Positions 4,321 through 45,352 of a stretch of 64,000 nt of DNA are shown here, in pieces (the stretch's first letter is position 1; each line of letters opens with the position of its first letter). Where the stretch lies: assembly GCA_031261635.1 (NCBI GenBank), contig JAISJH010000068.1, positions 221-64,220 of the forward strand, written 5' to 3'. The position numbers and the translations under genes were made by a program. The notes under the pieces are model-generated. The model did not search any database. It was not told the DNA's origin and worked only from the letters and a program-made list of their open reading frames with translations. This stretch comes from Oscillospiraceae bacterium. Lineage in GTDB: Bacteria; Bacillota; Clostridia; Oscillospirales; Oscillospiraceae.

Positions 4321-6390
4321 TTGAGAATCATCAACCCCTTTCGCCTAACCCTGCTTGCGCTTGTTCCGGCTTTGCTTGCTGTTATTTGTATACTGGGTTT
4401 GTATAACCTGCAAATCGTTCACGGTGAGGAATACTATGAGCGTTCGCGAAGCTCTATCGTTACGCGCGAGGTTATTCCCGCTTCTCGGGGGAGCATACTT
4501 GACCGTTACGGGCGCGTGCTTGTCAGCAACCGCGTTAGTTATAACGTTTCAATCGACCGCGCGCGGCTTGTCGCCGGGGGCGACCCTAACGGCGTTATAC
4601 TGGAGCTTATTTCTAACGCCGCGCATTTTGGCGTTCCCTATACAGACACAAGCCCCCTTGAAACAGTCGCGCCCTACGGAATTAAAAAGACGCTTACGGC
4701 TACCCAGCAGACACGTTACGCGGCCTATATGAAGCACCAGAAGCTTGACCCGGACAATATCAGGCAGGACTTTTTTACCTGGCTTAAAAACCACTATTCT
4801 GTCCCGGAGACGTACAGCGATGCCGAAGCGCGGCTCGCGGTCGGAGTACGCTACGAACTCGAACTACGGACGCTTTTCCACTACGCGCCCTATTACTTCG
4901 CGGAGGACGTCGCGCTTGACTATATCGCCCAAATCGAGGAGCGCAGTTATCCCGGTGTATCTATGGAAAGCGTCAGCGTCCGCGAATACAACACCGACTA
5001 CGCGGCGCACGTTCTCGGACACGTCGGACCGATGGACAGCGCGGAAATCATCAAATACAGCGAATTTGGCTACCCGATGAACGCGCTCGTGGGCAAGGAC
5101 GGCCTGGAAAAAGCCTTCGAGGCGGAGCTTCACGGAGAGGACGGGGCGCGGACGATAACGCGCAACGAGGAGGGCGCGATTACAGGCGTTCTCGAAACAA
5201 AAGAGCCTAAACCCGGCAATAACGTTATGCTGACTATCGACATCGAGCTTCAGCAAATCGCGGAGCTTGAACTTGCAAGCGCGATAGAGGCGGTAAACGC
5301 CGAACGTATCGAGGCCGCCGCGCTAAATCCAGAGAAGGCGCAGGTTCCGATACCGGGCGGCGCGGTCGTAGTAATCAATATCGCGGACGGAGGCTTGCTC
5401 GGCAGCGCGAGTTATCCTACGTTCAATACGGCTACGTTCTACCGCGACTACAATACGCTGCTGTCAGACCCGCGAAAGCCGCTTATTAACAGAGCCTTGC
5501 TCGGCGAATACGAGCCGGGTTCTACGTTCAAGCCCGTTACCGCGCTCGGCGTTCTTAACGAGCGGATTATCAGCGAAACCGATACAGTTTACGATAAGGG
5601 TATCTACACGGAATACGCCTCACAGGGCTATTCCCCGACCTGCTGGCTCTATCCGCAGGGTTCGCACGGAACGATTAACGTCGTCGAGGCAATAACGTTC
5701 AGCTGTAACTACTTCTTTTACGACGTGGGAGTGCGGCTCGGTATAGACAAGCTGTCCTACTACGCCGGGCAATTCGGTCTGGGCGAAAAAACCGGCACGG
5801 AGCTTGACGAATCCGCCGGGCGCGTCGCCAGCGCGCAGTACAAAAAAACCGCCAAGGACGAGGACTGGTACCCCGGCGATACGCTACAGGCGGCAATAGG
5901 GCAGAGCTACAATAACTTTACCCCGGTTCAGCTCGCGAGCTACTGCGCGACTATAGCGAACAGCGGGGTTCGCAACGCCGCGCACTTTCTGAAAAGCGTT
6001 AAGACGCGCGATAACTCCCTAACCGTCCGCGAATACGACGCGCCCGCCCTGCCCGCCGTTAACGCCGACCCCTATTGCTTTCTGGCCTTGCAAAAGGGTA
6101 TGCGCGGTGTTGTGACAAACCTCTCCGGCACGGCCTACAGCACCTTCGGGCATTACAGCGTCCCCGTGGCGGCTAAAACGGGTACGGTTCAGTTCGGAAC
6201 GGGCGTAGAAAACAACGCGGTTTTCATAGCCTACGCCCCCTACGAAAACCCCGAGATAGCCGTAGCGGTAGTAGTAGAAAAAGGCGGCTCGGGAAGCTCG
6301 GTGGCAAACATAGCAAAAGCCGTATTCGAAAACTACTTCTCCACAACAAGCACAAACGCCCCCGAGGAAGAGGGTGCGCTTTTGAGATAG
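4321..6390 (+). CDS. mrdA: penicillin-binding protein 2 (elongation transpeptidase)
   Basis: N-terminal TM anchor, SRGSILDRYGRVL dimerisation-domain motif, and the STFK, SCN and KTGT active-site triad. TTG start at 4321. Confidence 0.9.
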   Translation: MRIINPFRLTLLALVPALLAVICILGLYNLQIVHGEEYYERSRSSIVTREVIPASRGSILDRYGRVLVSNRVSYNVSIDRARLVAGGDPNGVILELISNAAHFGVPYTDTSPLETVAPYGIKKTLTATQQTRYAAYMKHQKLDPDNIRQDFFTWLKNHYSVPETYSDAEARLAVGVRYELELRTLFHYAPYYFAEDVALDYIAQIEERSYPGVSMESVSVREYNTDYAAHVLGHVGPMDSAEIIKYSEFGYPMNALVGKDGLEKAFEAELHGEDGARTITRNEEGAITGVLETKEPKPGNNVMLTIDIELQQIAELELASAIEAVNAERIEAAALNPEKAQVPIPGGAVVVINIADGGLLGSASYPTFNTATFYRDYNTLLSDPRKPLINRALLGEYEPGSTFKPVTALGVLNERIISETDTVYDKGIYTEYASQGYSPTCWLYPQGSHGTINVVEAITFSCNYFFYDVGVRLGIDKLSYYAGQFGLGEKTGTELDESAGRVASAQYKKTAKDEDWYPGDTLQAAIGQSYNNFTPVQLASYCATIANSGVRNAAHFLKSVKTRDNSLTVREYDAPALPAVNADPYCFLALQKGMRGVVTNLSGTAYSTFGHYSVPVAAKTGTVQFGTGVENNAVFIAYAPYENPEIAVAVVVEKGGSGSSVANIAKAVFENYFSTTSTNAPEEEGALLR

Positions 6391-6393
6391 TTA

Positions 6394-6892
6394 ACAGTTA
6401 TCAAATATCAAATATCAGAGACGTTAGTTCAGATAACAGTTATCAGATATCAAATATCAGAGACGGGGGTTTTGGACGAAAGGTGCGCCGCGTGACGTAG
6501 GGGCGGGTTTCAAACCCGCCCTCCCCCGCGCCGTGCGCGGGGTGCGCCGTCCCGGCGCAGGGCAGGGCGTTGCCCTGCCCGTCATTGCGAGCCGCGCGAA
6601 GCAATCCAAGCCCAGTATCCCCCGTCCTGCCCCACGTCCCACGTCCCACGTCCCACGTCCTACGTCCCACGTTCAGCGTCCCGGCGCCGTGCGCCGTCTT
6701 TGCGAAGCACCGGTAAGCCTGCGATACGCAGAACGTTACAGGTGCGAAGCAATCCAGTGCCGGGAGGATAACTTACGGACTACGTATCGCAGGATACTAC
6801 GTCAACCCGGGCTTGGCTTCGCCCTGCCGCGCGCCGGGGCGATTTCCCCGCGCACGGCGCGTGGAGGGCGGGTTTGAAACCCGCCCCTACGT
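6394..6892. repeat. composite intergenic mosaic repeat (two AT-rich terminal modules plus GC-rich palindrome chain)
   Basis: Terminal modules at 6394-6423 and 6436-6465. The GGGGCGGGTTTCAAACCCGCCC hairpin near the left end is mirrored at 6863-6892. Also present: GTCATTGCGAGCCGCG, a CACGTCC 7-mer run at about 6632-6672, and the CAATCCAGTGCCGG core at 6750-6763. Confidence 0.85.
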
Positions 6893-11451: not shown

Positions 11452-11949
11452 TCACATCTCCTTTAATCTTTCCGCTATATAACTCTGCACTTCGGCTTTT
11501 TCGACATTGAGCGCGGTGGCGAGTTCCCCGTACAGCAGGCTTTCCGCTATTTTCTTGTATTTCGCGTCCACAACGCCGAGCGTTTTCTTAGCGTTTCGCG
11601 CGTCGCGCCGCTTCGCGTAAATCGACATCGTAAGCTCAATAAGGTCGGGGACGGAGTTTCGCAGAACGAACTGCCGGTAATGCGTGTCAAGCTCCTTGAA
11701 CTCGCGGCTGTTAAACGTTTTCACGTCGTTCTCTGAAATTTTGCTGATAAGGTGTTCGGCTTCCTCCTTAGAGATTACCGGGCGCATAGTGATTTTAGTA
11801 TCTACAGGCGTAGTGATAGTCAGTTCCTGGAACAGCGATTTGATTACGTAACACAAAACGCCCTCCGCGTCGTCGGGTTCGCGCGTAATATCCTCGACCC
11901 TGCAAACGCCTGAAACGCCGTAGACGACCAAATCGCCTATGTTAAACAT
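11452..11949 (-). CDS. CarD/CdnL family RNA-polymerase-binding transcriptional regulator
   Basis: N-terminal FNIGDLVVYGVSGVCRVEDI (CarD_CdnL_TRCF domain) plus a helical C-terminal domain; 165 aa. Confidence 0.75.
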   Translation of the reverse strand: MFNIGDLVVYGVSGVCRVEDITREPDDAEGVLCYVIKSLFQELTITTPVDTKITMRPVISKEEAEHLISKISENDVKTFNSREFKELDTHYRQFVLRNSVPDLIELTMSIYAKRRDARNAKKTLGVVDAKYKKIAESLLYGELATALNVEKAEVQSYIAERLKEM

Positions 11950-12077
11950 AATTAAATCACCTCCCCGGATAAAACTGGCGAAAGCCTCACCCTAACTACA
12001 GGTTTGTATATATATTATAACACAATCCCCGCAATTTTGCAAGCGTGATTTTTCAAAAGTGTTCACATAAGTTGTCG

Positions 12078-12772
12078 AGGCGCACCCCCCTCTAAAGAGG
12101 GGGGCTTTGGAGGGAGGGACGAGGGTTGCGGGGGAAAGATTGAGGGGCTACGTAGGGGCGGGGTTCAAACCCGCCCTCCTCCGTCCCGGCGCCCTCCTCC
12201 GTCCCGGCGCCCTCCTCCGTCCCGGCGCCCTCCTCCGTCCCGGCGCCGTGCGCCGTCTTTGCGAAGCACCGGTAAGCCCGCGATACGTAGGACGTTACAG
12301 GTGCGAAGCAATCCAGTGCCGGGGGGACAACATACGTCCCAACGTATCTTGGGTACCTACGTCAACCCTGGATTGCTTCGCCGCATATCATCGGTACGTA
12401 TCGCAAGTGCGGTGGCGGCTTCGCAAAGACGGTGCGCCGGGGGGCGCACCACGGGCAGGGCGAAGCCCCGCCCTGTCCCGGCGCAATGCGCCGGGACGGT
12501 GGACGGGGTTACGCCGCGCACGGCGCGGGGAGGGGTTTTGCACACGTCTGTAGGGGCGAGGCTCGCCTCGCCCGGTTGCCAATTTCCCCCGGTTGCCAGT
12601 TTTACCCCAGTAATCCGGGCGAGGCAAGCCTCGCACCTACAGACCGCAACGTACATTTGGAAACCCCGCAACCCCCGTCCAAACCCCCGTCTCTGATATT
12701 TGATATTTGATATTTGATAACTGTTATCTGTTATTTGCTATCTGTTATTTGCTGTCTGCTATCTGATAACTG
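12078..12772. repeat. composite intergenic mosaic repeat with an 18-mer x4 tandem array and an 11-unit heptad tail
   Basis: CCCTCCTCCGTCCCGGCG x4 at 12174-12245. Nested palindrome GTCTTTGCGAAGC...CAATCCAGTGCCGG (12309-12322)...CTGGATTGCTTCGC...GCTTCGCAAAGAC. Terminal module CGTCTCTGATATTTGATATTT followed by TGNTATY heptads to 12772. Confidence 0.9.
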
Positions 12773-12782
12773 AAAAAAGCCC

Positions 12783-12812
12783 TTGACATTACTGTGCTAA
12801 AGGGAGTATAAT
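12783..12812 (+). promoter_or_regulatory. sigma-A promoter upstream of the thiolase gene
   Basis: TTGACA 12783-12788, 18-nt spacer, TATAAT 12807-12812. It is followed by the near-palindrome TGTACA-CAGTGC-TGTACT, a possible operator. Confidence 0.6.
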
Positions 12813-12875
12813 GGTATCTGTACACAGTGCTGTACTAATATTTCCCTTGCCTGTAACGAAAGGAAACGTTTTACA

Positions 12876-14069
12876 ATGAGAGATGTTGTAATAGTCGAAG
12901 CTGTCCGGACGGCTGTCGGGACAATCGGCGGCACGCTCAAAAGCACACCGCCGGAGGAGCTTGCGCGGGTAGTGCTTAAGGCTATCCTCGACCGCTCGGG
13001 GCTTGACCCGGCGAAGGTTAACGAGGTCGTGCTGGGTCACTGCCGTCAGTCCAGCGACAACCCCAATATCGCGCGTATCGCGGCTCTCCGCGCCGGAATA
13101 CCGGAGGAAACTCCCTCCTATACCGTTATGCGCCAGTGCGCCTCCGCGCTTTGCGCCGTCAATAACGGCGTTATGTCTATTCAGTCCGGCGACTGCGATA
13201 TTGTTATCGCGGGCGGTACGGAATCTATGTCTATGGCGCCGTTCTATATCAGAAACGCGCGTTTTGGTCTGGGGACAGGCTCTACGGAGCTGCTTGACAG
13301 CCTCACCGAAGGGCAGTTCCAGTCACAGCCTAACGAAACCTACGGACGGTTTAATATGGGTATGACAGCCGACAACGTAGCTGAAAAGTATAATCTGAAA
13401 CGCGAGGACTTGGACGCGTTCTCACTGCGTTCGCAGCAGCGGGCGTTGAAAGCCATCGCGGACGGAAAATTCAAGGACGAAATCGTCCCCGTAACTATCC
13501 CGCAGCGCAAGGGCGAGCCGATTGTTTTCGACACGGACGAGTTCCCCCGCGAAACCACCCTTGAAAAACTCGCGAAGCTAAAACCTGTTTTCAAGCAGGA
13601 CGGAGTTACGACCGCCGGAAGTTCAAGCGGACGCAACGACGGAGCGAGCGCGGTACTTCTTATGGCTCGCGAAACCGCCGAAGCCTTAGGCTTCAAGCCG
13701 CTTGCGAGGTTTGTATCGTTCGCGAACGCCGGGGTTGACCCGCGCTATATGGGCATTGGTCCAGTTCCCGCGACGCGCAAGGCCTTAGACCGCGCGGGGC
13801 TGACTGTTAAAGACCTCGGCCTGGTCGAGCTGAACGAAGCCTTCGCGGCGCAGTCCGTGGCTTGTATCAACGAATTAGGGCTTGACACCGATATAACAAA
13901 CGTCAACGGCGGCGCGATTGCCCTGGGTCACCCCGTAGGCTCGAGCGGCTGCCGTATACTGGTAACGCTCCTGTACGAAATGCGCCGCCGCAAGGTCAAG
14001 TACGGCCTCGCGAGCCTCTGCATAGCGGGAGGTATGGGAACGGCTGATATTATTGAGCTTTTGGATTAA
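12876..14069 (+). CDS. acetyl-CoA C-acetyltransferase (thiolase II)
   Basis: [16 protein letters not shown]-terminus, active-site Cys region (VMRQCASAL), [19 protein letters not shown], and CIAGGMG at the C-terminus. Confidence 0.9.
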
Positions 14070-14072
14070 ATA

Positions 14073-14515
14073 ACAGTTATCAAATATCAAATATCAGAGA
14101 CGATGGGTTGGACGAGGGTTGCGGAGATGGAACAGGCAAATTCCCCTCTTGGGAGGGGTGGCGCGAAGCGCCGGGGTGGTCTCCCGCCGCAGCGACCGTA
14201 CTCCGTCCCTCCCCCGTCATTGCGAGCCGCGGTAAGCTTGCGATACGTAGCAATGAGACCGGCGCGGCAATCCAGTGCCGGGGGCGTAACTTACGGTATC
14301 TGTGGCTTATACTACTGGATTGCTTCGCGCCTAAACCTTGGTTGTATGTTAAGTTTTCCGGCGCTCGCAAAGACGGTGCGCCGGGACGTAAGACGTAGGA
14401 CGTAGGTCATTGGACGTAGAACGTAGAACGAGGCTTGCGCGGCAACGCGGTTCATATACCCCGCGCAATGACAATCGTCCCATTATTCATTATTAACTAT
14501 TCACTATTCATTAAT
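14073..14515. repeat. composite intergenic mosaic repeat
   Basis: Terminal module at 14073-14102, CCCCTCTTGGGAGGGG hairpin, GTCATTGCGAGCCGCG...CAATCCAGTGCCGG...CTGGATTGCTTCGCGCC...GGCGCTCGCAAAGAC nested palindrome, GGACGTAG 7-8-mer run, and an ATTATTC/ACTATTC heptad tail abutting the SD of the next gene. Confidence 0.85.
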
Positions 14516-14535
14516 ATAACTGGAGGGTACTACAA

Positions 14536-15333
14536 ATGGCATTATTCGACTTAACAGGCAAGGGCGCGGTTGTAATCGGCGGCGCGGGCGGCTTAGGACA
14601 GGCAATCGCGCAGGGTTTAGCGCAGGCGGGGGCTAAGGTTCTTATTTCGAGCCGCAAAGAGGACGCGCTTAAACGCGCTCAGGACGAAATTAAGGCCGCG
14701 ACGGGTCTTAGCGTTGAGTACGCGACAGGTGACGCTTCCGTCGAAGCCGACGTTATCGCGCTTGTTAAAACTTCCGTCTCAAAACTCGGAAAAGTGGACA
14801 TACTTGTTAACGCGCAGGGTTTCAACAAGAAGCAGGACGCGCTGGACTTCGATTTGGCTGTATTCGCGCAGATGCTTACGGCGAACGTTACCTCCGTTAT
14901 GACGACGGCGAAACACTTCGGAGCGCATATGAAGGCTAACGGCTACGGCAAGATTGTCAACCTTTCAAGCGTTCGCGGCAAGATTGCCACTAAAACCCCC
15001 GGCAACGCCGGCTACTGTGCCACAAAGGGCGCGGTGGATATGCTTACGAAACAGCTCGCGAGCGAGTTCGGCCCCTTCGGTATTACCGTTAACGCGATTG
15101 GTCCGAACATTACCGAAACCCCGATGATGTCCGAGATTTTCAAGAAACGCGCGGCGGACGCCGGAATCCCGATTGAGGAATACCTCAAAGGACAGGCGGC
15201 AGACCTCCCGCTACGCCGTATGGCGCAGCCGGACGACTGTGTGGGAACGGTAGTGTTCCTCGCGGCTCCCGCAAGCGACTTTATGACGGGCAATATCCTC
15301 TACCCCGACGGCGGCCTAGTCGCGGTGGGCTAA
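14536..15333 (+). CDS. SDR family oxidoreductase (FabG / gluconate-5-dehydrogenase-like)
   Basis: GGAGGLG cofactor motif, NAQG, and catalytic YCATKGAV; 265 aa. Confidence 0.85.
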   Translation: MALFDLTGKGAVVIGGAGGLGQAIAQGLAQAGAKVLISSRKEDALKRAQDEIKAATGLSVEYATGDASVEADVIALVKTSVSKLGKVDILVNAQGFNKKQDALDFDLAVFAQMLTANVTSVMTTAKHFGAHMKANGYGKIVNLSSVRGKIATKTPGNAGYCATKGAVDMLTKQLASEFGPFGITVNAIGPNITETPMMSEIFKKRAADAGIPIEEYLKGQAADLPLRRMAQPDDCVGTVVFLAAPASDFMTGNILYPDGGLVAVG

Positions 15334-15341
15334 TCCAGTTA

Positions 15342-15740
15342 ACAGTTAGCAAATATCAAATATCAGAGACGTGGGGTTTGGACGCGGGGTGCGTTTGCGC
15401 GTTATTACACGCCCGTAGGGGCGGGTTTCAAACCCGCCCTCCCCCGTCCCGGTGCCGTGCGCCGAGGGCGGGGCGTAGCCCCAGCCCGTCATTGCGAGCC
15501 GCGGAACGCGTAAGATACGTAGGATTGAAACCGGCGCGGCAATCCAGTGCCGGGAGCGTAACTTACGTATCTGTGGCTTATACTTACGGTATCTGAGGCT
15601 TATCCTACTGGATTGCTTCGCGCCTAAACCTTGGTTGTATGTTGAGCCTCCCGGCGCTCGCAATGACGAACTCTTAAATCTCCGCGCTAACGCTTAAATT
15701 CTCGCATTATTCATTATTAAATATTAACTATTCATTATAT
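15342..15740. repeat. composite intergenic mosaic repeat
   Basis: Terminal module at 15342-15371 (ACAGTTAGCAAATATCAAATATCAGAGACG), GGGGCGGGTTTCAAACCCGCCC, the GTCATTGCGAGCCGCG...CAATCCAGTGCCGG...CTGGATTGCTTCGCGCC...GCGCTCGCAATGAC palindrome, and an ATTATTC heptad tail. Confidence 0.85.
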
Positions 15741-15757
15741 TACGGAGGAATACTACT

Positions 15758-16660
15758 ATGGCTTATATGCCGCTTGACAAGAGCAAGTTCCATTTGGACA
15801 AGTCCACTATGACGAAAATCCACGACCTTTCTAATCCCTGGGGCGTTGACACGCCGCTTTGGCCGTTTCCCGGGCCTCGCGCCGACCTCGCTTTTCCGCG
15901 CGGGCAGTATCTCGGACGCTTCCATAAGAGAACGATGACCTATACCGGGACGCTTCACGCCGGAACGCATATGGACGCTCCTAACCACGTCCTCCACGAG
16001 GAGGAAGTCGACCGCGAGCGTTACGGTTATACTTTCGCAGAAATCCCGCTTGAGCATTGTATCGGCAGCGGCGTTATACTCGATATGACCTACCTCTTTG
16101 ACGAGTTCAACGCTAAATGGGACGCGGCGGGCGGCGACCCCACAAAATTCGGCGACATCTGGGTAGAGCTGAAGCCCGAGCATTTTGAAAAGGCACTCAA
16201 AAAGGACAATCTCGAAATCCGCCCGAATGACTGGGTTGTCGTGAACACCGGCTTCCAGCGTCTGTGGCGCAAGAATAATGACAAGTATTATAACTACTAC
16301 CCCGGTATGGGTCCCGAAGTCGCTAAGTGGCTCATTCACGAAAAAAAGATTAAGGGCATAAGCGGCACCTGGGGCGCGACTGACGCTCCGCTTTGGCACT
16401 ATCCGCTGAAAGAGCAAATGCCCTGGCTTGATACCGCTTACAAGGACGCTACGGGACACGACGCGTCTGAAAAATTCCACGACTACGAACCCTGCCACCG
16501 CCTCTTTATGCAGCACGGCGTTGTAACAGTAGAAAACGCCGGAGGCGACATCGACGAGGTAAGCGGCAAACGTATGACAATAGCCGCGTTCCCCTTCCGC
16601 TGCGAAATGGCCGACGGCGGCTTTGTAAGGCTCGTAGCGTGGGAAGAAGGAAAGTTCTAA
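15758..16660 (+). CDS. cyclase family protein (kynurenine-formamidase-like metal hydrolase fold)
   Basis: LHAGTHMDAPNHV matches the HxGTHxDxPxH motif of the putative cyclase family; 300 aa. Confidence 0.7.
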   Translation: MAYMPLDKSKFHLDKSTMTKIHDLSNPWGVDTPLWPFPGPRADLAFPRGQYLGRFHKRTMTYTGTLHAGTHMDAPNHVLHEEEVDRERYGYTFAEIPLEHCIGSGVILDMTYLFDEFNAKWDAAGGDPTKFGDIWVELKPEHFEKALKKDNLEIRPNDWVVVNTGFQRLWRKNNDKYYNYYPGMGPEVAKWLIHEKKIKGISGTWGATDAPLWHYPLKEQMPWLDTAYKDATGHDASEKFHDYEPCHRLFMQHGVVTVENAGGDIDEVSGKRMTIAAFPFRCEMADGGFVRLVAWEEGKF

Positions 16661-16689: not shown

Positions 16690-16992
16690 AACTCAGCCCC
16701 TGCCCCCTTCCGGAGAAGGGGGTGCCTCCGCAGAGGCGGGGGTTGTTCTCTAAGAATTGCGGTAACCCTTAAAGACCAACCCCCGCCGCCTGCGGGCGGC
16801 ACCCCCTTCGTGCGCGAAGGGGGCAGGGAGCGGGAATAGTGCGCGATAAACCGCGTCCCTACGTCCCGCCGCCTGCGGGCGGCACCCCCTTCGTGCGCGA
16901 AGGGGGCAGGGAGCGGGAATAGGGCGCGATAAATCGCGCCCCTACGTCCCGCCCCCGTCTCTGATATTTGATATTTGATAACTGTTAACTGA
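16690..16992. repeat. composite intergenic mosaic repeat containing an 83-bp tandem duplication
   Basis: CCCGCCGCCTGCGGGCGGCACCCCCTTCGTGCGCGAAGGGGGCAGGGAGCGGGAATAG.GCGCGATAAA.CGCG.CCCTACGT occurs twice (16782-16864 and 16865-16947). The terminal module CGTCTCTGATATTTGATATTTGATAACTGT is at 16956-16985. Confidence 0.9.
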
Positions 16993-17004
16993 AATTAAAA
17001 GGAG

Positions 17005-17976
17005 TTGACACCCTTGAAATCACTGGACGAAATAAAGCAAATCGCCGTGCTGGGCGCGGGTACTATGGGACCCGGTATGGCGCAAATCTTCGCTATGGGC
17101 GGCTACAAAGTAACTATGTGGACGCGCTCGGAGGATACCCGAAAAAAGGCGCAGGAAACACTGCATAAGAGTATTGTGACCTTCTCGGAGGAAGGCTTGC
17201 TTGACGCCAAGGACATTGACGCGGTTTACAATCGCGTTAGTTTTGCGTCTACCGTGGAGGAAGCTGTCGCCGGAGCGCAGTATATTCAGGAAACAATTGT
17301 CGAGAATAAGGACGCGAAGCTTGCGCTCTATGAACAGCTCGACAAGTGCCTGGAGGACGATGTTATTATCGCCTCGAACACGTCCGGGCTGAACGTATTC
17401 GGGCTTATTCCCGAACGCCGCTTGAAACAGGCGGTTATAGCCCACTGGTACGCGCCTCCGCAGCTTATCCCGCTCGTTGAGGTCGTCAAAGCCGAACAGG
17501 CTCCGCAGGAGTACGCCGATATCACGGTCGCGCTGCTTGAAAAATGCGGCAAGACCCCCGTTCTTATGAAGAAATTCATTCAGGGCTATATAGCGAACCG
17601 TATGCAGATGGTTCTTAATACCGAGCTGTTCTATCTTCTGGACAACGGCTACTGCACGCCGGAGGATATTGACAAGGCGGTCAAAGCGAGCTTTATCCCC
17701 CGCGCGGTAGTGCTGGGGCTGTGCAAACGCGCGGACTTCGGCGGGCTTGATATGACGGCTAATAACTATAAAAACAAGAGCTACACGCCTCCCGAGCCGG
17801 TCGATATGCCCTCCTCCCTCGCCGAACACGTTGAAAAGGGCGAACTGGGGCTAAAAAGCGGCAAGGGCTTCTACGACTACAGCGGCGTAGATAAACAGGC
17901 GCTCCTGGCTAAACGCGATAAGCAGCTGTTTGAAGTTTTTAAGCTGGCAAAAAAGTTTATGGACGACCCGGTGTAA
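17005..17976 (+). CDS. 3-hydroxyacyl-CoA dehydrogenase family protein (Hbd / carnitine-dehydrogenase-like)
   Basis: IAVLGAGTMGPGMAQIFA Rossmann motif plus the HCDH C-terminal domain. TTG start at 17005 after AAAGGAG. Confidence 0.85.
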   Translation: MTPLKSLDEIKQIAVLGAGTMGPGMAQIFAMGGYKVTMWTRSEDTRKKAQETLHKSIVTFSEEGLLDAKDIDAVYNRVSFASTVEEAVAGAQYIQETIVENKDAKLALYEQLDKCLEDDVIIASNTSGLNVFGLIPERRLKQAVIAHWYAPPQLIPLVEVVKAEQAPQEYADITVALLEKCGKTPVLMKKFIQGYIANRMQMVLNTELFYLLDNGYCTPEDIDKAVKASFIPRAVVLGLCKRADFGGLDMTANNYKNKSYTPPEPVDMPSSLAEHVEKGELGLKSGKGFYDYSGVDKQALLAKRDKQLFEVFKLAKKFMDDPV

Positions 17977-19025: not shown

Positions 19026-19334
19026 ACAGTTATCAAATATCAAATATCAAATATTAGACGCGGGATAATTTGACCTGTACTGAAACATTGTAATATCAAC
19101 CCTGTCCTAAAACCTTTTGCGGTCTAATGTAGGGGGCGATGCCCACATCGCCCCGTTCCGCAGAATGTGGGATTGATGAACCCGCGGGACGATGTGGGCA
19201 TCGTCCCCTACACTGATACGGAGGGTTGGACGTGGGTTGCGTAATCCGGGCGGGGCTGGGAAACCCCGCCCCTACGTCCCTCCGCAACCAAACGTCCTAA
19301 CCCTCGTCTCTGATATTTGATATTTGATATCTGT
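19026..19334. mobile_element. MITE-like intergenic element with imperfect terminal inverted repeats
   Basis: ACAGTTATCAAATATCAAATATCAAATATTAGACG at 19026-19060 versus CGTCTCTGATATTTGATATTTGATATCTGT at 19305-19334. The interior carries the GGGGGCGATGCCCACATCGCCCC / GGGACGATGTGGGCATCGTCCC hairpin pair also seen at 7465-7550. Confidence 0.55.
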
Positions 19335-19363
19335 AAACTGAAAAAAGAGGAGATTACGCAATT

Positions 19364-20032
19364 ATGGCTAAGAGCAAAGTCACCACCATTGAGACGGCCG
19401 TGGAACGCGTTAAGGACGGGCAGACCGTGCTTATTCCCGGGTTTGTCAATGTCGGCGTACCTGAAACGCTTATTAAGGCGATTATCAAAAACGACGTTAA
19501 AGACATAAATGTCATTTCAAACAACACGAGCGTCAAGGGACAGGGCATAGGGCTTCTTGTCCACGACGGACGCATTAAGCACATAACCTGCTCGCATATC
19601 GGGAGCAATACCGAGACTGTCGAAAAAGTTGTCGCGGGAGAACTCAACGTAACCTTCGTTCCGCAGGGTACGCTTTGCGAGCGCGTCCGCGCGGGTGGCG
19701 CGGGTATCGGCGGCGTGCTTACGCCTACCGGGCTTGGCACTCCGATTGCCGAGGGCAAGCCTGTAATCAACGTTGACGGCAAGGACTATCTGCTCGAAAA
19801 AGCGTTGCGCGGCGATGTTGCGTTAATTCACGCCTGGAAAGCCGACGAAATGGGCAACGTGGTCTATCACCGCACGGCGCGGAATTTCAACCAGGTTTGG
19901 GCGACTGCCGCCGACTGGGTTATTGTCGAGGCGGAGGAAATCGTCCCCGTCGGAAGCCTTGACCCGGACGCTATTATGACGCCCGGCGCATTGGTTGACG
20001 CGGTTGTGCAAGCCGCCGTCAAGGCTGAATAG
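19364..20032 (+). CDS. 3-oxoacid CoA-transferase subunit A
   Basis: VKDGQTVLIPGFVNVGVPETLI and ALIHAWKADEMGNVVY match the AtoD/ScoA family; 222 aa. Confidence 0.9.
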   Translation: MAKSKVTTIETAVERVKDGQTVLIPGFVNVGVPETLIKAIIKNDVKDINVISNNTSVKGQGIGLLVHDGRIKHITCSHIGSNTETVEKVVAGELNVTFVPQGTLCERVRAGGAGIGGVLTPTGLGTPIAEGKPVINVDGKDYLLEKALRGDVALIHAWKADEMGNVVYHRTARNFNQVWATAADWVIVEAEEIVPVGSLDPDAIMTPGALVDAVVQAAVKAE

Positions 20033-23269: not shown

Positions 23270-23645
23270 TTCGTAGGGGCGGGTTTCAAACCCGCCCTCC
23301 CACGTCCCACGTTCCGGCGCCGTGCGCCGTCTTTGCGAAGCACCGGTAAGCCTGCGATACGTAGGACGTTACAGGTGCGAAGCAATCCAGTGCCGGGGGG
23401 GAAACTTACGTCCCTACGTATCACAGACTACTACGTCAACCCTGGATTGCTTCGCCGCGTTTCAATGTTACGTATCGCAAGTGCGGTGGCGGCTTCGCAA
23501 TGACGGGCAGGGCGAAGCCCTGCCCTTACGGGGGCGGGCGCTTCGCTGATACGTAGGTAGGACGGGGGTACGGCGCGCACGGCGCGGGAAACCACCCCGC
23601 CGCCTGCGGGCGGCACCCCTCCACAGAGGGGATAAGGACGGGGGT
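23270..23645. repeat. composite intergenic mosaic repeat (GC modules only, no AT-rich terminal module)
   Basis: GGGGCGGGTTTCAAACCCGCCC, the GTCTTTGCGAAGC...CAATCCAGTGCCGG...CTGGATTGCTTCGCC...GCTTCGCAATGAC nested palindrome, GGGCAGGGCGAAGCCCTGCCC, and CCGCCGCCTGCGGGCGGC. Confidence 0.85.
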
Positions 23646-24632: not shown

Positions 24633-25148
24633 GCGTCCAAACCCTCGTCCCACGTATCGGCGCGGTGCGCCGGGGCGGGGCTTGCCCCTGCCCGTCATTG
24701 CGAGCCGCGGAACGTTTGCGATACGTACCATTGAGACCGGCGCGGCAATCCAGTGCCGGGAGCGTAACTTACGTATCTGCGGACTGCGGCACTGGATTGC
24801 TTCGCGCCTATAACCGCGTTGTATGTTAGGCTTCCCGGCGCTTCGCAATGACGGACTTTTTAGCTTTTTGGGATACAATAACCCGCGCCCAAACCCTCGT
24901 CCCGTGTATCGGCGCGGTGCGCCGGGAAACCACCCCGCCGCTGCGGCGGCACCCCTCCCAAGAGGGGAATAGGACGAAAATAGGACGAGGGTTGCGAAGT
25001 TGCCGTAATCTTACAGAAACGCAGAGACAAAATTCCCCTCTTGGGAGGGGTGGCGCGTAGCGCCGGGGTGGTATCCCCGCGCCGTGCGCGGACGTAACCG
25101 CGTCCAAGCCCCGTAATTATTCATTATTCACTATTACATATTCATTGT
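24633..25148. repeat. composite intergenic mosaic repeat with an internal about 250-bp-spaced duplication
   Basis: GCG.CCAAACCCTCGTCCC..GTATCGGCGCGGTGCGCCGGG occurs at about 24633 and about 24883. Also present: the GTCATTGCGAGCCGCG...CAATCCAGTGCCGG...CTGGATTGCTTCGCGCC palindrome, CCCCTCTTGGGAGGGG, and an ATTATTC heptad tail. Confidence 0.85.
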
Positions 25149-26124: not shown

Positions 26125-26382
26125 TTAAATCCTTTCATAATGCGTCCACATACGCAGGATTTTGATAGTGCCGCCGTTGATTTCGTAAACAAGGCGGTGC
26201 TGTTCATTTATTCGCCGCGAGTATCTGTTGTCGGAACCGCGTAATTTTTCATAAGGCGGAGGGTTTTGGTATGGGTTTTCGTGAATTATATTCAATAATT
26301 CAGCCGCCTTATCCTTTAATTTACTGCGTTCAATCAGCCGCATATCTTTTTCGGCTTGCCTCGTAACTTCAATGTAATACAT
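26125..26382 (-). CDS. yoeB: Txe/YoeB family toxin
   Basis: NPYQNPPPYEKLRGSDNRYSRRINEQHRLVYEI....IKILRMWTHYE is the YoeB signature; 85 aa. Confidence 0.85.
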   Translation of the reverse strand: MYYIEVTRQAEKDMRLIERSKLKDKAAELLNIIHENPYQNPPPYEKLRGSDNRYSRRINEQHRLVYEINGGTIKILRMWTHYERI

Positions 26383-26602
26383 CAGGCCATATTTCCTCCA
26401 ATGCTATACATTCAGAACTTGGTGTTCGGCTTCCTTCCTCAATAGATTCCCACATACCCGGTATGGATTTGAGGTAATCCGTGTCGTCGTCGATAGTAGC
26501 CGGGTCATTATAGACCAGCGCGTCAATATAACCGAGAACGCGCCGCGCTAAAGGTTCCGGGAGCGTGGTTATCCGATTGATACATATTTCCTGAACTGTC
26601 AT
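26369..26602 (-). CDS. putative antitoxin of the YoeB-like toxin
   Basis: 77-aa acidic protein overlapping the toxin start by 14 nt. It is not a canonical YefM/Phd sequence. TLPEPLARRVLGYIDAL resembles the DUF2281-like antitoxin at 942-1139. Confidence 0.5.
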   Translation of the reverse strand: MTVQEICINRITTLPEPLARRVLGYIDALVYNDPATIDDDTDYLKSIPGMWESIEEGSRTPSSECIALEEIWPDVLH

Positions 26603-26690: not shown

Positions 26691-27425
26691 ACAGTTATCA
26701 AATATCAAATATCAGAGACGGAATTACAAATAACAGTTAACAAATATCAGATATCAGAGACGAGAGTTTGGACGAGGGTTGCGTCCTGCGGGAGGCACCC
26801 CCCGCGCTTGCGGGCGGCACGTGCGCTCTCTAAAGAGGGGGGCTTTGGAGGGCAGGACGTAGGGGCGGGTTTCAAACCCGCCCTCCCCCGCGCCGTGCGC
26901 GGGGTGCGCCGGAACGGCGACCTCCCCCGTCCCGGCGCACCGTCATTGCGAGCCGCGCGAAGCAATCCAAGCCCAATACCTACGTCCAGCCCCCGTCCAC
27001 CGTCCCGGCGCGTCCACCGTCCCGGCGCCGTGCGCCGTCTTTGCGAAGCACCGGTAAGCTCGCGATACGTAGGGCGTTACAGGTGCGAAGCAATCCAGTG
27101 CCGGGGGGAAAACATACGTCGTATCGCAGGGTACTACGTCAACCCTGGATTGCTTCGCCGCATATCAATGGTACGTATCGCAAGTGCGGTGGCGGCTCGC
27201 AATGACGGGCAGGGCGAAGCCCTGCCCTGTCCCGGCGCATTGCGCCGGGACGGTGGACGGGGTTACGCCCGCGCACTGCGCGGGGTTGGGCGGGTTTCGC
27301 ACCCGCCCCTACGTAGCCCCGTCCAATCCCCGTCCAACCCCCGTCCAATCCCCGTCCTATTCCCCTCTTGGGAGGGGTGCCCCCGCAGGTGCGGGGTGGT
27401 TTTCCCGCGCCGTGCGCGGCCAATT
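26691..27425. repeat. composite intergenic mosaic repeat (largest copy, about 735 bp)
   Basis: Terminal modules at 26691-26720 and 26733-26762, GGGGCGGGTTTCAAACCCGCCC, GTCATTGCGAGCCGCGCGAAGCAATCCAAGCCC, the GTCTTTGCGAAGC...CAATCCAGTGCCGG...CTGGATTGCTTCGCC palindrome, GGGCAGGGCGAAGCCCTGCCC, and CCCGGCGCATTGCGCCGGG. The 299-aa track ORF here is R/P/G-rich and spurious. Confidence 0.9.
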
Positions 27426-27476: not shown

Positions 27477-27512
27477 AACGGAAAGTCAACTTGTCATTGG
27501 GGGGGTGATTAC

Positions 27513-27707
27513 ACGAAAAACAGGCTTGAGGAGCTTCGCAAAGAGCGCGGAGTATTGCAGGAGCAGCTTGCGGAGGCCGTCGGCGTTTCGCGCCAAACTA
27601 TCGGCTCGCTCGAGAACGGACGCTATAATCCGTCGATTATCCTCGCGTTCAAACTCGCGCGGTATTTCAATCTGAAAATTGAGGACATATTTCTTTACAA
27701 TGAATAG
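27513..27707 (+). CDS. small XRE/Cro-family HTH regulator (YozG-like); no canonical start codon
   Basis: KNRLEELRKERGVLQEQLAEAVGVSRQTIGSLENGRYNPSIILAFKLARYFNLKIEDIF. Between the promoter and this sequence there is no in-frame ATG/GTG/TTG. An ACG at 27513 lies 4 nt after GGGGGGTGA. Confidence 0.65.
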   Translation, partial: TKNRLEELRKERGVLQEQLAEAVGVSRQTIGSLENGRYNPSIILAFKLARYFNLKIEDIFLYNE

Positions 27708-27756
27708 TTAATAGTGAATAATGAATAATTGTCGCGCTTTTGCGCGGGGAGGGACT

Positions 27757-28206
27757 ATGAAAAAGGGCAATCACGAATGGCGGAATCTGATAGTGACTAT
27801 TTTAATATGCGCCGCGATAGTAACTATTACGGTTCTTGCGGTAGGTTCCGCAACTATAAAGTATCAGACCGAGCGTCCGCCGCTGCCGCCGCTGTGGCTG
27901 CGTATCGTATCTTTCGCGATAATTGCGGGCTTTGTTATTCCGCTGTGGATTGATATTGTCCGCAGAATACTTAGACCAAAAGTTGCCAAAGAAAACGCTT
28001 TAGCCGAGAACGACGAGCGCGGACGGGCAATTGAAGCACGGGCAAGCGTGACCGCAAGCTTTCTTATGTATCACATTTTAGCTATAACCGGAATAATTTC
28101 TTTTTGGCTGGGAGAAAACAACGTTTCAGTCGCGCTGATAACCGCGGGTTTCGCGACGCAATGTGTCAAGCGACTTTGCAAGGCCTACTACAGGCGCAAG
28201 ATGTGA
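27757..28206 (+). CDS. DUF2178-like membrane protein, paralog 1 of 4
   Basis: 4 TM with the central NDERGRAIEARA motif and a C-terminal YYRRKM. ATG at 27757 follows GGAGGG. Confidence 0.6.
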   Translation: MKKGNHEWRNLIVTILICAAIVTITVLAVGSATIKYQTERPPLPPLWLRIVSFAIIAGFVIPLWIDIVRRILRPKVAKENALAENDERGRAIEARASVTASFLMYHILAITGIISFWLGENNVSVALITAGFATQCVKRLCKAYYRRKM

Positions 28207-28217
28207 GGTGCTACATA

Positions 28218-28643
28218 ATGAACAAGTTCGATAAGATGAACAAGCTCTTTCTGCTGTTGATGGTTGTGGGAAACATAGCCGCCATCGTAATAGCTAAGGC
28301 GATTTGGGGCGACAGTGAGTTTACGTTTTACATCTCAATGGCGCTCTGGCTTGCGTTCTGCATAATAACGTCGTTTGTAATCAAGCGCGTGTTCGGAAAA
28401 GTCACGGACGAGGAGCGCAAGGAAAGCCAGCTCGCGCTAACGGACGAGCGGGGGAAAAACATAAACCACCGCGCCGGAAACAGCGCGTGGATTGTCACAA
28501 TAATAATGCTGTTCGCGGGTTCGTTTCTGATTATATATAATATTGACAACGAAGCGTTAATAAAAAAGCTTCTGGGCGGGATACTGCTACTCAGCTACGC
28601 CGTGAAGGAGGTTTTTGTAATATATTATAGGAAAAGAATGTGA
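28218..28643 (+). CDS. DUF2178-like membrane protein, paralog 2 of 4
   Basis: TDERGKNINHRA motif and C-terminal YYRKRM. ATG at 28218 follows GAGGTG. Confidence 0.6.
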   Translation: MNKFDKMNKLFLLLMVVGNIAAIVIAKAIWGDSEFTFYISMALWLAFCIITSFVIKRVFGKVTDEERKESQLALTDERGKNINHRAGNSAWIVTIIMLFAGSFLIIYNIDNEALIKKLLGGILLLSYAVKEVFVIYYRKRM

Positions 28644-28649: not shown

Positions 28650-29339
28650 GGGAATGTGAGGCGTGGGCAACGAACGTGAGGGGGGGTAACGACTGCCGAA
28701 GCTCCGAAGTCACGCGCTACGGTCTCCTCCGTATCGGCGAAGCGCCCGCCCCCGTCATTGCGAAGCACCGGTACGCTTGCGATACGTACCCTGTTACAGG
28801 TGCGAAGCAATCCAGTGCCGGGCGGAAAACATACGTCTAACGTATCGTAGGACTACTACGTCAACCCTGGATTGCTTCGCCGCATAACAATTGTACGTAT
28901 CGCAAGTGCGGTGGCGGCTTCGCAAAGACGGACAGGGCAACGCCCTGCCCTGTCCCGGCGCAATGCGCCGGGACGTTGGACGGGGTTACGTCCGCGCACG
29001 GCGCGGGGAAACCCTGCGTAGTGCTTCCTATTGTGGATATCGCGGAGTTACGTCCGCGCACGGCGCGGGGAAACCACCCCGGCGCTACGCGCCACCCCTC
29101 CCAAGAGGGGAATTTGGACGTAGGACGCGGGGAAATGGCGTACCCTCGTCCTACCCCCGTCCTACCCCCGTCCTGCCCTCGTCCTATTCCCCTCTTGGGA
29201 GGGGTGCCGCCCGCAGGCGGCGGGGTGGTTCCCCGCGCCGCGCGGACGCAGCCAACGTCCAACCCCCCGTAATTATCAATTATTCATTATCAATTATCAA
29301 TTGTCATAACGTCTCTGATATCTGATATTTGATAACTGT
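28650..29339. repeat. composite intergenic mosaic repeat splitting the paralog array
   Basis: GTCATTGCGAAGCACCGG...CAATCCAGTGCCGG...CTGGATTGCTTCGCC...GCTTCGCAAAGAC palindrome, GGGCAACGCCCTGCCC, two CCCCTCTTGGGAGGGG hairpins, AT-rich CAATTAT heptads, and the terminal module CGTCTCTGATATCTGATATTTGATAACTGT at 29310-29339. Confidence 0.9.
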
Positions 29340-29368
29340 TAACTGTACAAAAAGGAGGTATTGCAATA

Positions 29369-29794
29369 ATGAAAAAATCGGAACTCATAAAATCTATCGT
29401 TTTCCCTGTCATATTCGGGCTTGGCTTTAGCCTTGTGGTTGTGTGGCTGTCGCGGCGGGAGTTTTCGCTTGATACTGTTTTGAGTATGGCAGTGGGTGTG
29501 CCGCTTTTTCCGGCGATATATAATATCAACAAGTACAGGCGGCTTGCTAAAGACCCCGCTAAATACGAGGACGAGCAGGCCGCCGCTACGGACGAGCGCG
29601 GCAAAGCTATAGCCCTCGCGGCCGACTCCGCGCTTTTGAAGCTGATACAAATACCCGCTGTGATACTGGTTTTTGTCGCGTACATAGTCAATACGCGGAC
29701 GCTGATGATTGTCGGCGTAACCGTCGGGACACTGGTAATAGTCATATGGCTCGGACGCTACGCGCTGCGGGCGTATTTTCGCAGGAAGATGTGA
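29369..29794 (+). CDS. DUF2178-like membrane protein, paralog 3 of 4
   Basis: TDERGKAIALAA motif and C-terminal YFRRKM. ATG follows AAGGAGG. Confidence 0.6.
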   Translation: MKKSELIKSIVFPVIFGLGFSLVVVWLSRREFSLDTVLSMAVGVPLFPAIYNINKYRRLAKDPAKYEDEQAAATDERGKAIALAADSALLKLIQIPAVILVFVAYIVNTRTLMIVGVTVGTLVIVIWLGRYALRAYFRRKM

Positions 29795-29867
29795 GGAGGC
29801 GGTACAATGAAAAGAGCCACTAGCCAAAGCAAATTTGATACTTCCCAAATTAAAGGAGGGTTTTTCA

Positions 29868-30272
29868 ATGCGGAAAACTGCTATAGCGGTATTATTAACC
29901 TGTATGGGCGCGGCCCTGTCAATTACGCTGTTCGCCTCGGGCGCGGGCGGCACGGCGGTTACAATATTTAAGATACTCGGCAATTTGCTGATGGCGGCAG
30001 GAATAATTTTGCTAATCCTGTCCATTTACAAGCGCGGGCAAAGCAAAGCCGCCCTCGAGCGCGAACGCGTCGAAACAGACGAGCGCGGTCAGGCGATAGA
30101 TAATAAATCCGGCAACTACGCGCTGTCAATAACTCACGGACTGGCGCTAATGGCGGGGCTTGCGCTGTCATTCGCAAATCAGTACGCGTCGGCTTTCGCG
30201 CTGTTCGCGGTGGTTGCGGTGAGCGGGGTTGTGAAATTGGTTTTGAGGGCGCATTATCGCGGGAAAATGTGA
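29868..30272 (+). CDS. DUF2178-like membrane protein, paralog 4 of 4
   Basis: TDERGQAIDNKS motif and C-terminal HYRGKM. ATG at 29868 follows AAGGAGGG. Confidence 0.6.
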   Translation: MRKTAIAVLLTCMGAALSITLFASGAGGTAVTIFKILGNLLMAAGIILLILSIYKRGQSKAALERERVETDERGQAIDNKSGNYALSITHGLALMAGLALSFANQYASAFALFAVVAVSGVVKLVLRAHYRGKM

Positions 30273-31756: not shown

Positions 31757-32235
31757 TTGTAGGGGCAACGCACCTTGCCTCGCCCGGATTGCGTAACCCA
31801 CGTCCAAACCCCTATCCCCTCTGTGGAGGGGTGCCGCCCGCAGGCGGCGGGGTGGTTTCCCGGCGCCGTGCGCCGTCTTTGCGAGCGCCGGGAAACTAAA
31901 CATACAATCAAGGTATAGGCGCGAAGCAATCCAGTGCCGGGAGCGTAACATACGTATCTGCGGACTGCGGCACTGGATTGCTTCGCGCCTATACATACTA
32001 CGTATCGCAAGTGCGGCGGCGCTCGCAAAGACGGCGCACGGCGCCGGGACGGAGGGCTGGACGAAGGCCTGGACGGCGCACGGCGCCGGGACGGGGGAAA
32101 CCACCCCGCCGCCTGCGGGCGGCACCCCTCCACAGAGGGGATAGGGGTTTGGACGGCGCACGGCGCCGGGACGCGATTTCAGTTAACAATTAACAGTGAA
32201 CAGTGAATAATTACGGGGGTTTGGACGGGGAAACG
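31757..32235. repeat. long near-palindromic mosaic repeat inside the gat operon
   Basis: Left arm CCCCTATCCCCTCTGTGGAGGGGTGCCGCCCGCAGGCGGCGGGGTGGTTTCCCGGCGCCGTGCGCCGTCTTTGCGAGCGCC. It is mirrored by GGCGCTCGCAAAGACGGCGCACGGCGCCGGGA...GAAACCACCCCGCCGCCTGCGGGCGGCACCCCTCCACAGAGGGGATAGGGG. The centre is at CAATCCAGTGCCGG...CCGCACTGGATTG, about 31965. Confidence 0.9.
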
Positions 32236-37800: not shown

Positions 37801-37998
37801 CTTTAGGGCTGAACTCGCCTTTATCGTTGCCGCTGAAAATGTCTAAAGCGGTGACGACCATAGCGGCGTCATAATAGCCCGGGTCGATTTTATCGACGTC
37901 AGTCCACTTCGCGAGGGTCTCGCCGACGAGCTTTGCGTCAGCCCCGGTGCCGATTGTATAGTCGGCCTGTTTGTCGACTGCCGCGGCACTAGTTCCCC
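34832..37998 (-). CDS. silent S-layer (SLH-domain) protein cassette 1: no promoter, SD, start codon or signal peptide
   Basis: The frame is open from the 42-bp core (GTSAAAVDKQADYTIGTG...) to the stop at 34832, with an in-frame TAA at 38014-38012 just upstream of the core. The N-terminal about 230 aa aligns with the four paralogs (TFTRGAAATLLAKAYNTP; GDGWAYAMGFMSGT..FSP; LLVKMLGY; DIIRYAAEARLF..ITYEQAAQILVNA), giving three SLH-like repeats. Confidence 0.8.
37957..37998 (-). repeat. 42-bp recombination core site, copy 1 (silent)
   Basis: GGGGAACTAGTGCCGCGGCAGTCGACAAACAGGCCGACTATA (read on the minus strand), identical in all five copies. Confidence 0.85.
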
Positions 37999-38126
37999 AG
38001 GAATGTACCGTTTACAATATATGTCAGCAAAACTGGCCGCAAAGCTAGACGTTTAGGCGCGCAACGCTCGATTTGGGGCGTTTTGAAAACTCTCGAAACG
38101 CTTCAAAACAGACTCGTTTTGCCCTC
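37999..38126 (-). repeat. conserved non-coding leader of a silent cassette (copy 1)
   Basis: ...GTTTTGAAGCGTTTCGAGAGTTTTCAAAACGCCCCAAATCGAGCGTTGCGCGCCTAAACGTCTAGCTTTGCGGCCAGTTTTGCTGACATATATTGTAAACGGTACATTCCT. It is alignable with the leaders at 41468-41594, 46773-46877 and 50129-50255. Confidence 0.8.
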
Positions 38127-38170: not shown

Positions 38171-38189
38171 ATTTCAAGCTTGCAAAACG

Positions 38190-38725: not shown

Positions 38726-38744
38726 CGCGCCACCTCACACGTAC

Positions 38745-45345: not shown

Positions 45346-45352
45346 TTTGTTT

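Follow-up and report, generated by a model that had tools for sequence, protein, structure and literature searches.

Repetitive extragenic palindromic (REP) sequences tagged with CGTC form a superfamily that includes Neisseria dRS3 and Rickettsia RPE-4 and RPE-6 (Di Nocera, De Gregorio & Rocco 2013, BMC Genomics 14:522; PMC3733652). Published CGTC monomers have an unpaired CGTC tag, an A-T-initiated stem (positions 1 and 2) of 8-9 bp, a loop of 4-5 nt and a 3-nt CCA tail, and they mostly form head-to-head dimers with the tags outside (PMC3733652). Heterodimers are frequent, possibly because SbcCD removes perfect long palindromes; some dimers lie inside longer palindromes, and most are extragenic (PMC3733652). 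CGTC REPs are mainly alphaproteobacterial, yet occur in five phyla, and have no dedicated transposase (PMC3733652). REP doublets are thought to be mobilised by Y1 transposases of the REP-associated tyrosine transposase (RAYT) type, whose substrates are single-stranded hairpins and whose action is linked to the lagging strand (PMC6006769). Here, we analyse a 64,000-nt stretch of an Oscillospiraceae genome (assembly GCA_031261635.1, contig JAISJH010000068.1, positions 221 to 64,220; hereafter the window), in which a long nested hairpin, exemplified by the copy at 12254-12431, recurs in gene spacers. We propose that these units are probably loop-expanded DNA repeats resembling REPs, REP doublets forming hairpins (REPINs) and bacterial interspersed mosaic elements (BIMEs), built as head-to-head pairs of ~62-nt CGTC-tagged monomers of different class.

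Results

The window holds twelve complete units and one half unit

The window contains 17 matches of CAATCCAGTGCCGS, against 0.03 expected from shuffles; 13 lie on the + strand and four on the - strand within the same units. CTGGATTGCTTCGC has 21 matches, against 0.02 expected. A scan of the 64 kb with an arm profile recovered 25 long arms (13 +, 12 -), three short arms and nothing further. The long arms make up 12 complete units and a lone left arm at 6695, in 13 gene spacers in total. The multi-copy nested stem-loop family reported in a preliminary description of this DNA is thus real and far above chance, although its dimensions need correction: units measure 160-185 nt from CGTC to GACG, not about 200 nt. 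The 13 tract positions given there stand apart from a few that were off by 1-10 nt (correctly 24746, 28808, 56050 and 62622). A complementary block does follow in 12 tracts, at 38-62 nt after CAATCCAG rather than 25-60 nt; the tract at 6750 has a left arm only.

Each unit consists of two inverted arms of 61-65 nt about a spacer of 38-62 nt. An arm reads, 5' to 3', CGTC, W-TTGCGA(A)GC, about 12 variable nt, TTGCGATACGTA (replaced by TTAACATACAAC in one arm class), about 12 variable nt, GCG(AA/CG)GCAAT and CCAG. CGTC begins all 25 long arms and all three short arms and is unpaired in the consensus monomer fold. The 3' tail after GCAAT is CCAG in 25/25 long arms and CCAAG in the short ones. Stem position 1 is paired (ATTGC..GCAAT) in 11 of the 25 arms and forms a T-T mismatch (TTTGC..GCAAT) in 14; position 2 is always paired. 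The monomer stem is interrupted, with an outer stem of 4-5 bp, then a GA(A)G/CGAA mismatch and a class-specific inner stem of 4-5 bp, around an interior of ~30 nt.

The three short arms, all on the + strand, lie at 6580-6610 (CGTCATTGCGAGCCGCGCGAAGCAATCCAAG), 26941-26971 (~95 nt upstream of unit 27036) and 60672-60702 (~105 nt upstream of unit 60778). They lack the ~35-nt loop expansion, have the form seen in Alphaproteobacteria and, as 30-nt monomers, offer five complementary pairs only. To judge from the sequence, the long monomer appears to be this alphaproteobacterial 30-nt monomer with a ~35-nt loop expansion.

Long arms fall into five classes, A to E; arms of one class are 87-93% identical, and arms of different classes 70%. 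Every one of the 12 units is a heterodimer, and 24 of the 25 long arms stand in head-to-head dimers. Partner classes and their order recur: there are four A|B units (12254-12431, 23328-23505, 27036-27207 and 28753-28930), four C|D units (14215-14375, 15487-15668, 24693-24853 and 58911-59071), and one each of D|E (31874-32033), E|A (55997-56158), E|B (60778-60961) and C|E (62569-62753), all of them on the + strand. Identity over arms and spacer is 87-90% among A|B units and 75-91% among C|D units. The lone arm at 6695-6757 (+) is of class A; its right arm is either absent or recombined into the adjoining module that bears GCTTCGCC. With five arm classes and two different ones in each unit, the variable segments are class signatures and not free loops.

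The outer pairing described earlier, GTCWTTGCGA with TCGCAAWGAC, is present in 12/12 units. The middle pair, GCGATACGTA with TACGTATCGC, is fully formed in only seven; where one arm has AACATACAAC in its place, as in the C|D subfamily and in unit 31874, 5/10 middle-pair positions are unpaired. Apical regions do vary between copies, in part through tandem duplications of 22 nt (unit 15487) and ~24 nt (unit 62569). The unit at 55997-56158 had been read as an inverted copy with swapped arm types; its A-class arm is on the right as claimed, and its left arm is of class E, so the copy is not a simple inversion.

Pairing between arms follows from one repeated sequence

Unit 12254 folds into a very stable three-helix hairpin. 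As RNA, its two strands reach -97 and -102 kcal/mol (z -7.5 and -8.8 against shuffles), and as DNA z is -7.4. The preliminary description took the conserved paired blocks and the varying apical loop and bulges to mean that the fold, rather than the sequence, is under constraint, and preferred to see each unit as a stand-alone structured non-coding RNA gene. We aligned the 12 units on the three-helix structure and compared pairing between the arms with 500 shuffles in which the 3' partners were exchanged among units. Arms of the same unit pair in 92.3% of cells, which equals the shuffled-partner mean of 92.3% and is reached by 256/500 shuffles. The covariation score is 0.055, against 0.058 in shuffles.

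The sequence itself is what is conserved. Invariant pairs account for 28/38 of the pairs in the alignment, and the conserved blocks are identical in 25/25 arms, irrespective of the partner arm. Changes in the variable helix columns are uncompensated: W at position 5 is paired in seven units and mismatched in five, and one indel column and two more columns disrupt pairing. On average, complementarity reaches 27.0 between the two arms of a unit but 30.3 between an arm and the partners in other units (permutation p for own higher = 0.95). Pairing between arms therefore stems from both arms bearing one conserved sequence.

Pairing within arms behaves differently: 95% of cells pair, against 87.9% in shuffles, and covariation is 0.170 against 0.053, with 0/500 shuffles reaching either value. 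The structure behind this comprises TTGC/GCAA and a class-specific inner stem (CACC/GGTG, GCGCC/GGCGC or GCCGC/GCGGC) with changes on both sides; CGTC and CCAG are unpaired. The signal is weak, based as it is on about three class-level events.

A stand-alone RNA gene is, on these results, extremely improbable. It would suit a nested hairpin of this size, with paired blocks conserved and apical parts varying, but those variable parts proved to be class-specific sequences. Of the outcomes named in advance as refuting a constrained fold, an absence of supported inter-arm covariation is what the 12 copies show. Both strands fold equally well. No Rfam family reaches its gathering score in the window, and at E<=1 over 11950-15760 there is nothing at the units, the sole match being a chance miRNA hairpin elsewhere. 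In 11900-15800 and 55700-56700 the units have neither a promoter nor a terminator of their own; the terminator scan takes loops of 3-8 nt and cannot score long hairpins. The 13 copies also have recombined arm classes. Of the two options that the preliminary description offered, a palindromic mobile unit fits the evidence and a structured RNA does not.

Units share one strand orientation regardless of gene direction

All 13 copies lie in spacers of ordinary chromosomal genes. Two units, 12254 and 55997, and the entire repeat blocks around them are bounded by the -35 boxes of divergent sigma-70 promoters close to consensus (for unit 12254, at 12042-12014 on the - strand and 12783-12812 on the + strand). 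This placement puts both units outside both predicted transcription units. All nine asymmetric copies and all three short arms share the + strand orientation (two-sided sign test on the nine copies ~0.004, with copies taken as independent), and this orientation holds across (+,+), (-,-), divergent and convergent gene contexts.

Individual spacers illustrate this range. Unit 14215 lies between thiolase and short-chain dehydrogenase/reductase (SDR) genes that are both on the + strand, unit 23328 between two minus-strand genes (DUF4349 and QueT), and unit 28753 in a convergent spacer. Unit 24693 has minus-strand genes on both sides and is followed by ACTTTTTAGCTTTTT; unit 58911 lies downstream of priA and is followed by ACTTTTTAGCTTTT.

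The long form is lineage-restricted, and a short form occurs in Alphaproteobacteria

The window is part of a contig of ~65 kb. Of 5.8 billion proteins, none is more than 77% identical to its thiolase, and the nearest come from Papillibacter, Sporobacter and Oscillospiraceae metagenome-assembled genomes (MAGs). The host thus belongs to a Clostridia lineage without close sequenced relatives. Among the matches listed, the long form occurs elsewhere only in the Oscillospiraceae MAG Hs463_bin82 (JAISLB010000155.1). In that genome an ABC-transporter gene is followed, at 5150-5386, by two other modules shared with the window, GCGCACGGCGCG and GGAAACCACCCC, and then by a B-type long arm within which the contig ends. 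The repeat probably broke the assembly at this contig end.

Another relative, in which the orthologous ABC transporter is 91% identical, has none of the shared modules in 20 kb. In two relatives at 76% identity, the thiolase-SDR spacers hold small membrane-protein genes and no repeats, and these genomes are too distant to show an empty site. Such patchy presence indicates that the units are lineage-restricted, and gain and loss fit it better than an ancient conserved element does.

The 43-mer of the long form was absent from the genome contigs searched. Of two metagenome scans, the first gave nothing and the second one chance match; a scan of viral sequences had no match, and neither did a protein search with two units translated in six frames. 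On the latter result, the long form is either rare or not annotated as a gene. Motif strings in the full-text literature returned no match or primers only.

The short form is more widely spread. Among the matches listed, the 20-mer GCGAAGCAATCCAGTGCCGG was found at least in Sphingomonas, Rhodopseudomonas, Labrys and others, which sets a minimum for the taxonomic spread. In those genomes it is part of a ~75-nt hairpin, CGTCATTGCGAGCGnAGCGAAGCAATCCAG-TGCCGG..CC-CTGGATTGCTTCGCnnCGCTCGCAATGACG, which has no Rfam match. Its variable stem position is paired in 12/21 cases against 8.7 expected and is poorly compensated. A few alphaproteobacterial short-form arms (in matches L001 and L015) carry a hairpin insert at the position of the ~35-nt segment.

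This distribution bears on whether the units are DNA sites kept by the host for protein binding or chromosome structure, such as gyrase- or IHF-type BIMEs or replication-oriented polar sequences. Sites of this kind would account for the invariant blocks, which are shared across phyla and unchanged in 25/25 arms, and for a single orientation over 56 kb; E. coli BIMEs bind IHF, gyrase and Pol I (PMC6006769). However, the units are absent from relatives whose flanking proteins are 76-91% identical, and the 50-fold range in family size and the patchy species distribution of REPs speak against a general host function (PMC3733652). We therefore regard host-kept sites as quite unlikely.

Units are embedded in nested palindromes of other repeat modules

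Repeat-rich spacers amount to ~7.5 kb, or 12% of the window. Within them, units are cores of larger nested palindromes of 350-490 bp, in which other hairpin modules stand in mirrored order (6495-6892, 26840-27331, 31801-32155, 55919-56286 and 62445-62794). Unit 27036 is the core of the palindrome at 26840-27331, and unit 55997 that of the 368-bp palindrome at 55919-56286. At unit 31874, within the palindrome at 31801-32155, the palindrome of the unit itself extends 16 nt past both ends. The modules include GTAG-tagged GGGCGGGTTTCAAACCCGCCC, CGTC-CCGGCGC-nnn-GCGCCGG-GACG, GGCAGGGCGAAGCCCTGCC and AT-rich 42-mers. In repeat-rich spacers CGTC is ~2x enriched; it stands on the left side of units, and GACG on the right side.

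The GTAG-tagged palindromes, (AC)GTAGGGGCGGGTTTCAAACCCGCCCCTAC, have the canonical REP shape and are often the outermost inverted pair of a nested palindrome (6495-6524/6863-6892, 12151-12180, 15415-15445, 23273-23300, 26858-26885/27285-27313 and 55942-55970/56238-56264). A palindrome of ~100 nt at 12545-12645, GTAGGGGCGAGGC..GCCTCGCACCTAC, is a second doublet of GTAG type; it gave the only sub-threshold Rfam match, a chance miRNA hairpin. Two small tagged palindromes, GACG-GGCAGGGC-GAAG-CCCTGCC-C and (C/T)GTC-CCGGCGC-nnn-GCGCCGG-GACG, trail A|B-type units in fixed order (27197-27262, 28920-28985, 56148-56215 and 12452-12500), which indicates that the repeated entity exceeds the unit.

AT-rich repeats of ~42 nt, CAGTTAACAGTTATCAAATATCAAATATCAGAGACG, start at stop codons or a few bases from them, and reappear inverted (CGTCTCTGATATTTGATA..) just ahead of the ribosome-binding site of the next gene. 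They thereby flank entire GC-rich repeat blocks, are sometimes in tandem and have a CGTC/GACG tag at the end. Examples in the forward sense (+) are at 6388-6494, 14067-14131, 15336-15400, 58832-58896 and 60542-60648; inverted examples are at 12688-12773, 16956-17017, 19305-19366, 54424-54611 and 62816-62919. A double-hairpin module, TCCCCTCTTGGGAGGGG-TG-CCGCC(C)GCAGGCGGCGG-GGTGG, has six copies (14142-14189, 25034-25081, 27361-27408, 29188-29235, 31815-31862 and 54349-54396), plus inverted ones (for example, 23583-23637 and 32092-32146). Short tandem arrays built on CGTCC/GGACG comprise (CCCACGT)n, four copies of the 21-mer CCTCCTCCGTCCCGGCGCC, 11-mers CCCCGTCCAAN and repeats of the GGACGTAG type (6633-6680, 12176-12247, 27318-27360, 29144-29190 and 14384-14430).

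Neighbouring genes and other loci in the window

Genes next to the units encode PBP2, a P-type ATPase, a thiolase, an SDR, QueT, GatB, PriA, Def, TrmD, RNase H and ParB. The stretches 26125-26602 and 27500-28643, in the interval that units 24693, 27036 and 28753 mark out, hold a YoeB-like toxin/antitoxin pair of small minus-strand genes, then a helix-turn-helix gene of XRE type and two open reading frames (ORFs) for small membrane proteins without family matches.

A surface-layer (S-layer) locus at 34832-53401 has a lower GC content and none of the REP-like units. It comprises five paralogous genes for proteins of ~840-1030 amino acids with S-layer-homology domains, around a tyrosine recombinase of the phage-integrase family (45480-46712). 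The 5' parts of the S-layer genes form inverted repeats across the recombinase gene, one of 620 nt at 84% identity (44612-45231 / 46937-47556) and a second of 47 nt at 98% (45236-45282 / 46874-46920; also 50256-50301). In its arrangement, the locus looks like an invertible S-layer expression switch.

Two further types of repeat array were considered for the units and rejected. An integron attC array would have R''/R' core sites (RYYYAAC / GTTRRRY), whereas the units end in CGTCWTTGCGA/TCGCAAWGACG. The flanks of the units are housekeeping genes (priA, def, trmD, parB, gatB and PBP2) on both strands, and the sole tyrosine recombinase is that of the S-layer locus, at least 10 kb from any unit. 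A CRISPR-like array was likewise dropped.

Discussion

A DNA repeat best accounts for the units, and transcription is the first point that weighs against it. Transcription may reach ten of the 13 copies, whose flanking genes are co-directional or convergent; as + strand RNA, C|D units gain 8-14 kcal/mol in stability through G-U pairs; and a T-rich tract, ACTTTTTAGCTTTT, follows two C|D units by eye (24693 and 58911, the former between minus-strand genes). Such features would be expected if the units were cis-acting RNA elements in mRNAs, serving as terminators, 3' stabilisers or RNase III processing sites in polycistronic transcripts. The hairpins are very stable, several units occupy spacers of co-directional genes in which no promoter is predicted, and REPs have been reported as transcript stabilisers or terminators (PMC3733652, PMC6006769).

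Nevertheless, we consider cis-acting RNA an unlikely explanation of the family. Units 12254 and 55997 are upstream of the two divergent promoters on either side of them, the common orientation is independent of gene direction, and units 23328 and 24693 are antisense to both neighbours. The comparison of RNA stability between strands is inconsistent in direction across classes: A|B units gain nothing as + strand RNA, and one C|D unit lies between minus-strand genes. Most units have no following T-tract, on which ground we also rejected plain intrinsic terminators, and there is no covariation. Some copies may have an RNA role, which does not explain the family.

Mobility supplies a second group of points against a REP-like repeat. 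Target-site duplications are absent in 10/12 units, the other flanking matches being parts of adjacent palindromes, and no transposase or HUH gene was found in the 64-kb window with Pfam and NCBIfam. The ORFs flanked by units (27721-28643, 29339-30025 and 32248-33006) have no nuclease or transposase family match. The lack of target-site duplications also tells against miniature inverted-repeat transposable elements (MITEs) derived from a DDE insertion sequence, of which the ~62-nt arms would be the terminal inverted repeats. Inverted arms, a variable centre, many copies and intergenic siting would all suit MITEs. However, the window has no related insertion sequence, the two arms of a unit differ in class, single arms and short monomers stand alone, and a CGTC tag with a CCA tail is REP architecture. 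We thus judge a MITE origin very improbable.

The remaining difficulties for a REP-like repeat concern the monomer and the sample. Covariation within the monomer comes from only some three class-level events, and monomer fold energies are no better than those of shuffles (z -1.3 to +0.6). At 61-65 nt with an interior of ~30 nt, the monomers also fall outside the published stem of 8-9 bp and loop of 4-5 nt. Finally, the evidence from this organism is one contig.

A REP-like repeat would be mobilised as follows, if RAYT-type mobilisation applies to the units by analogy. At replication forks, dimers would move as whole units in the form of single-stranded DNA hairpins. A nuclease or transposase acting in trans, with its gene outside the window, would recognise the conserved end blocks and cleave at the CGTC tag in the way that RAYT/TnpA(REP) cleaves at GTAG REPs. 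New copies would land preferentially in or next to existing palindromes. Heterodimers, with internal loops of 12-13 nt, would persist, and perfect long palindromes would be removed. Secondarily, some copies may influence the mRNAs that contain them. That this lineage carries an active, replication-coupled mobilisation system for CGTC-tagged REPs is a tentative possibility that we find doubtful; if it does, the strand co-orientation of the 13 copies, the CGTC punctuation of each nested module and the end blocks of 20-30 nt shared with Alphaproteobacteria would be its footprints.

These observations extend the range of CGTC-type REPs to a Clostridia lineage, an unusual host with an unusual density of them, in which a monomer loop larger by ~35 nt gives three-helix doublet hairpins of 160-185 nt. 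A genome so densely colonised, and in one strand orientation throughout, would be a good place to seek the enzyme behind CGTC REP mobility. For annotation, ~12% of the contig (7.5 kb of repeat-rich spacers) should not be taken for RNA genes or spurious ORFs. More generally, in an element made of one conserved sequence and its inverted copy, conserved paired blocks with variable loops do not amount to evidence for a selected fold.

Comparison with known systems

The units share with CGTC REPs the CGTC tag, the CCA tail, head-to-head heterodimers and a siting inside longer palindromes, in a Clostridia host (Oscillospiraceae-like) rather than an alphaproteobacterium. The strings ATTGCGAG and GCAATCC do not occur in the text or supplements of PMC3733652, where consensus sequences are given only in Figure 2. 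On stem and loop size, the ATTGCGAGC..GCAAT type is kept apart here from the four published families, CGTC-1 to CGTC-4.

The structured MITEs of other bacteria (Neisseria Correia/NEMIS, enterobacterial ERIC and pneumococcal RUP/BOX) are similarly intergenic, 100-200 bp long and built of long inverted arms that fold in transcripts. They differ in having terminal inverted repeats with target-site duplications, or a parent insertion sequence, neither of which is seen here.

The ~75-nt alphaproteobacterial hairpin is alike in its outer and inner blocks (identical over 20/20 nt for GCGAAGCAATCCAGTGCCGG), its tag, tail and head-to-head layout, and the TGCCGG at the start of its spacer. It belongs to another phylum and is without the ~35-nt GCGATACGTA segment in each arm, so that it forms one stem of 29 bp and not three helices.

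Like REPINs and BIMEs (Bertels & Rainey 2011; Ton-Hoang et al. 2012; PMC6006769), the units are inverted REP pairs that form one long imperfect hairpin with a tetranucleotide at its foot, are copied as a doublet with its spacer, and stand in mosaic clusters with other repeats. They differ in the tag, which is CGTC and not GT(A/G)G, the GTAG palindromes GTAGGGGCGGGTTTCAAACCCGCCCCTAC being a separate family in the same spacers. Unlike REPINs, they have no RAYT gene in the window, are ~2x as long as REPINs usually are and include two large internal loops. Since tag, tail, dimers and heterodimers are those of CGTC REPs and the sizes of stem and loop are not, we file the units as REPIN/BIME-like, loop-expanded relatives of the CGTC REPs.

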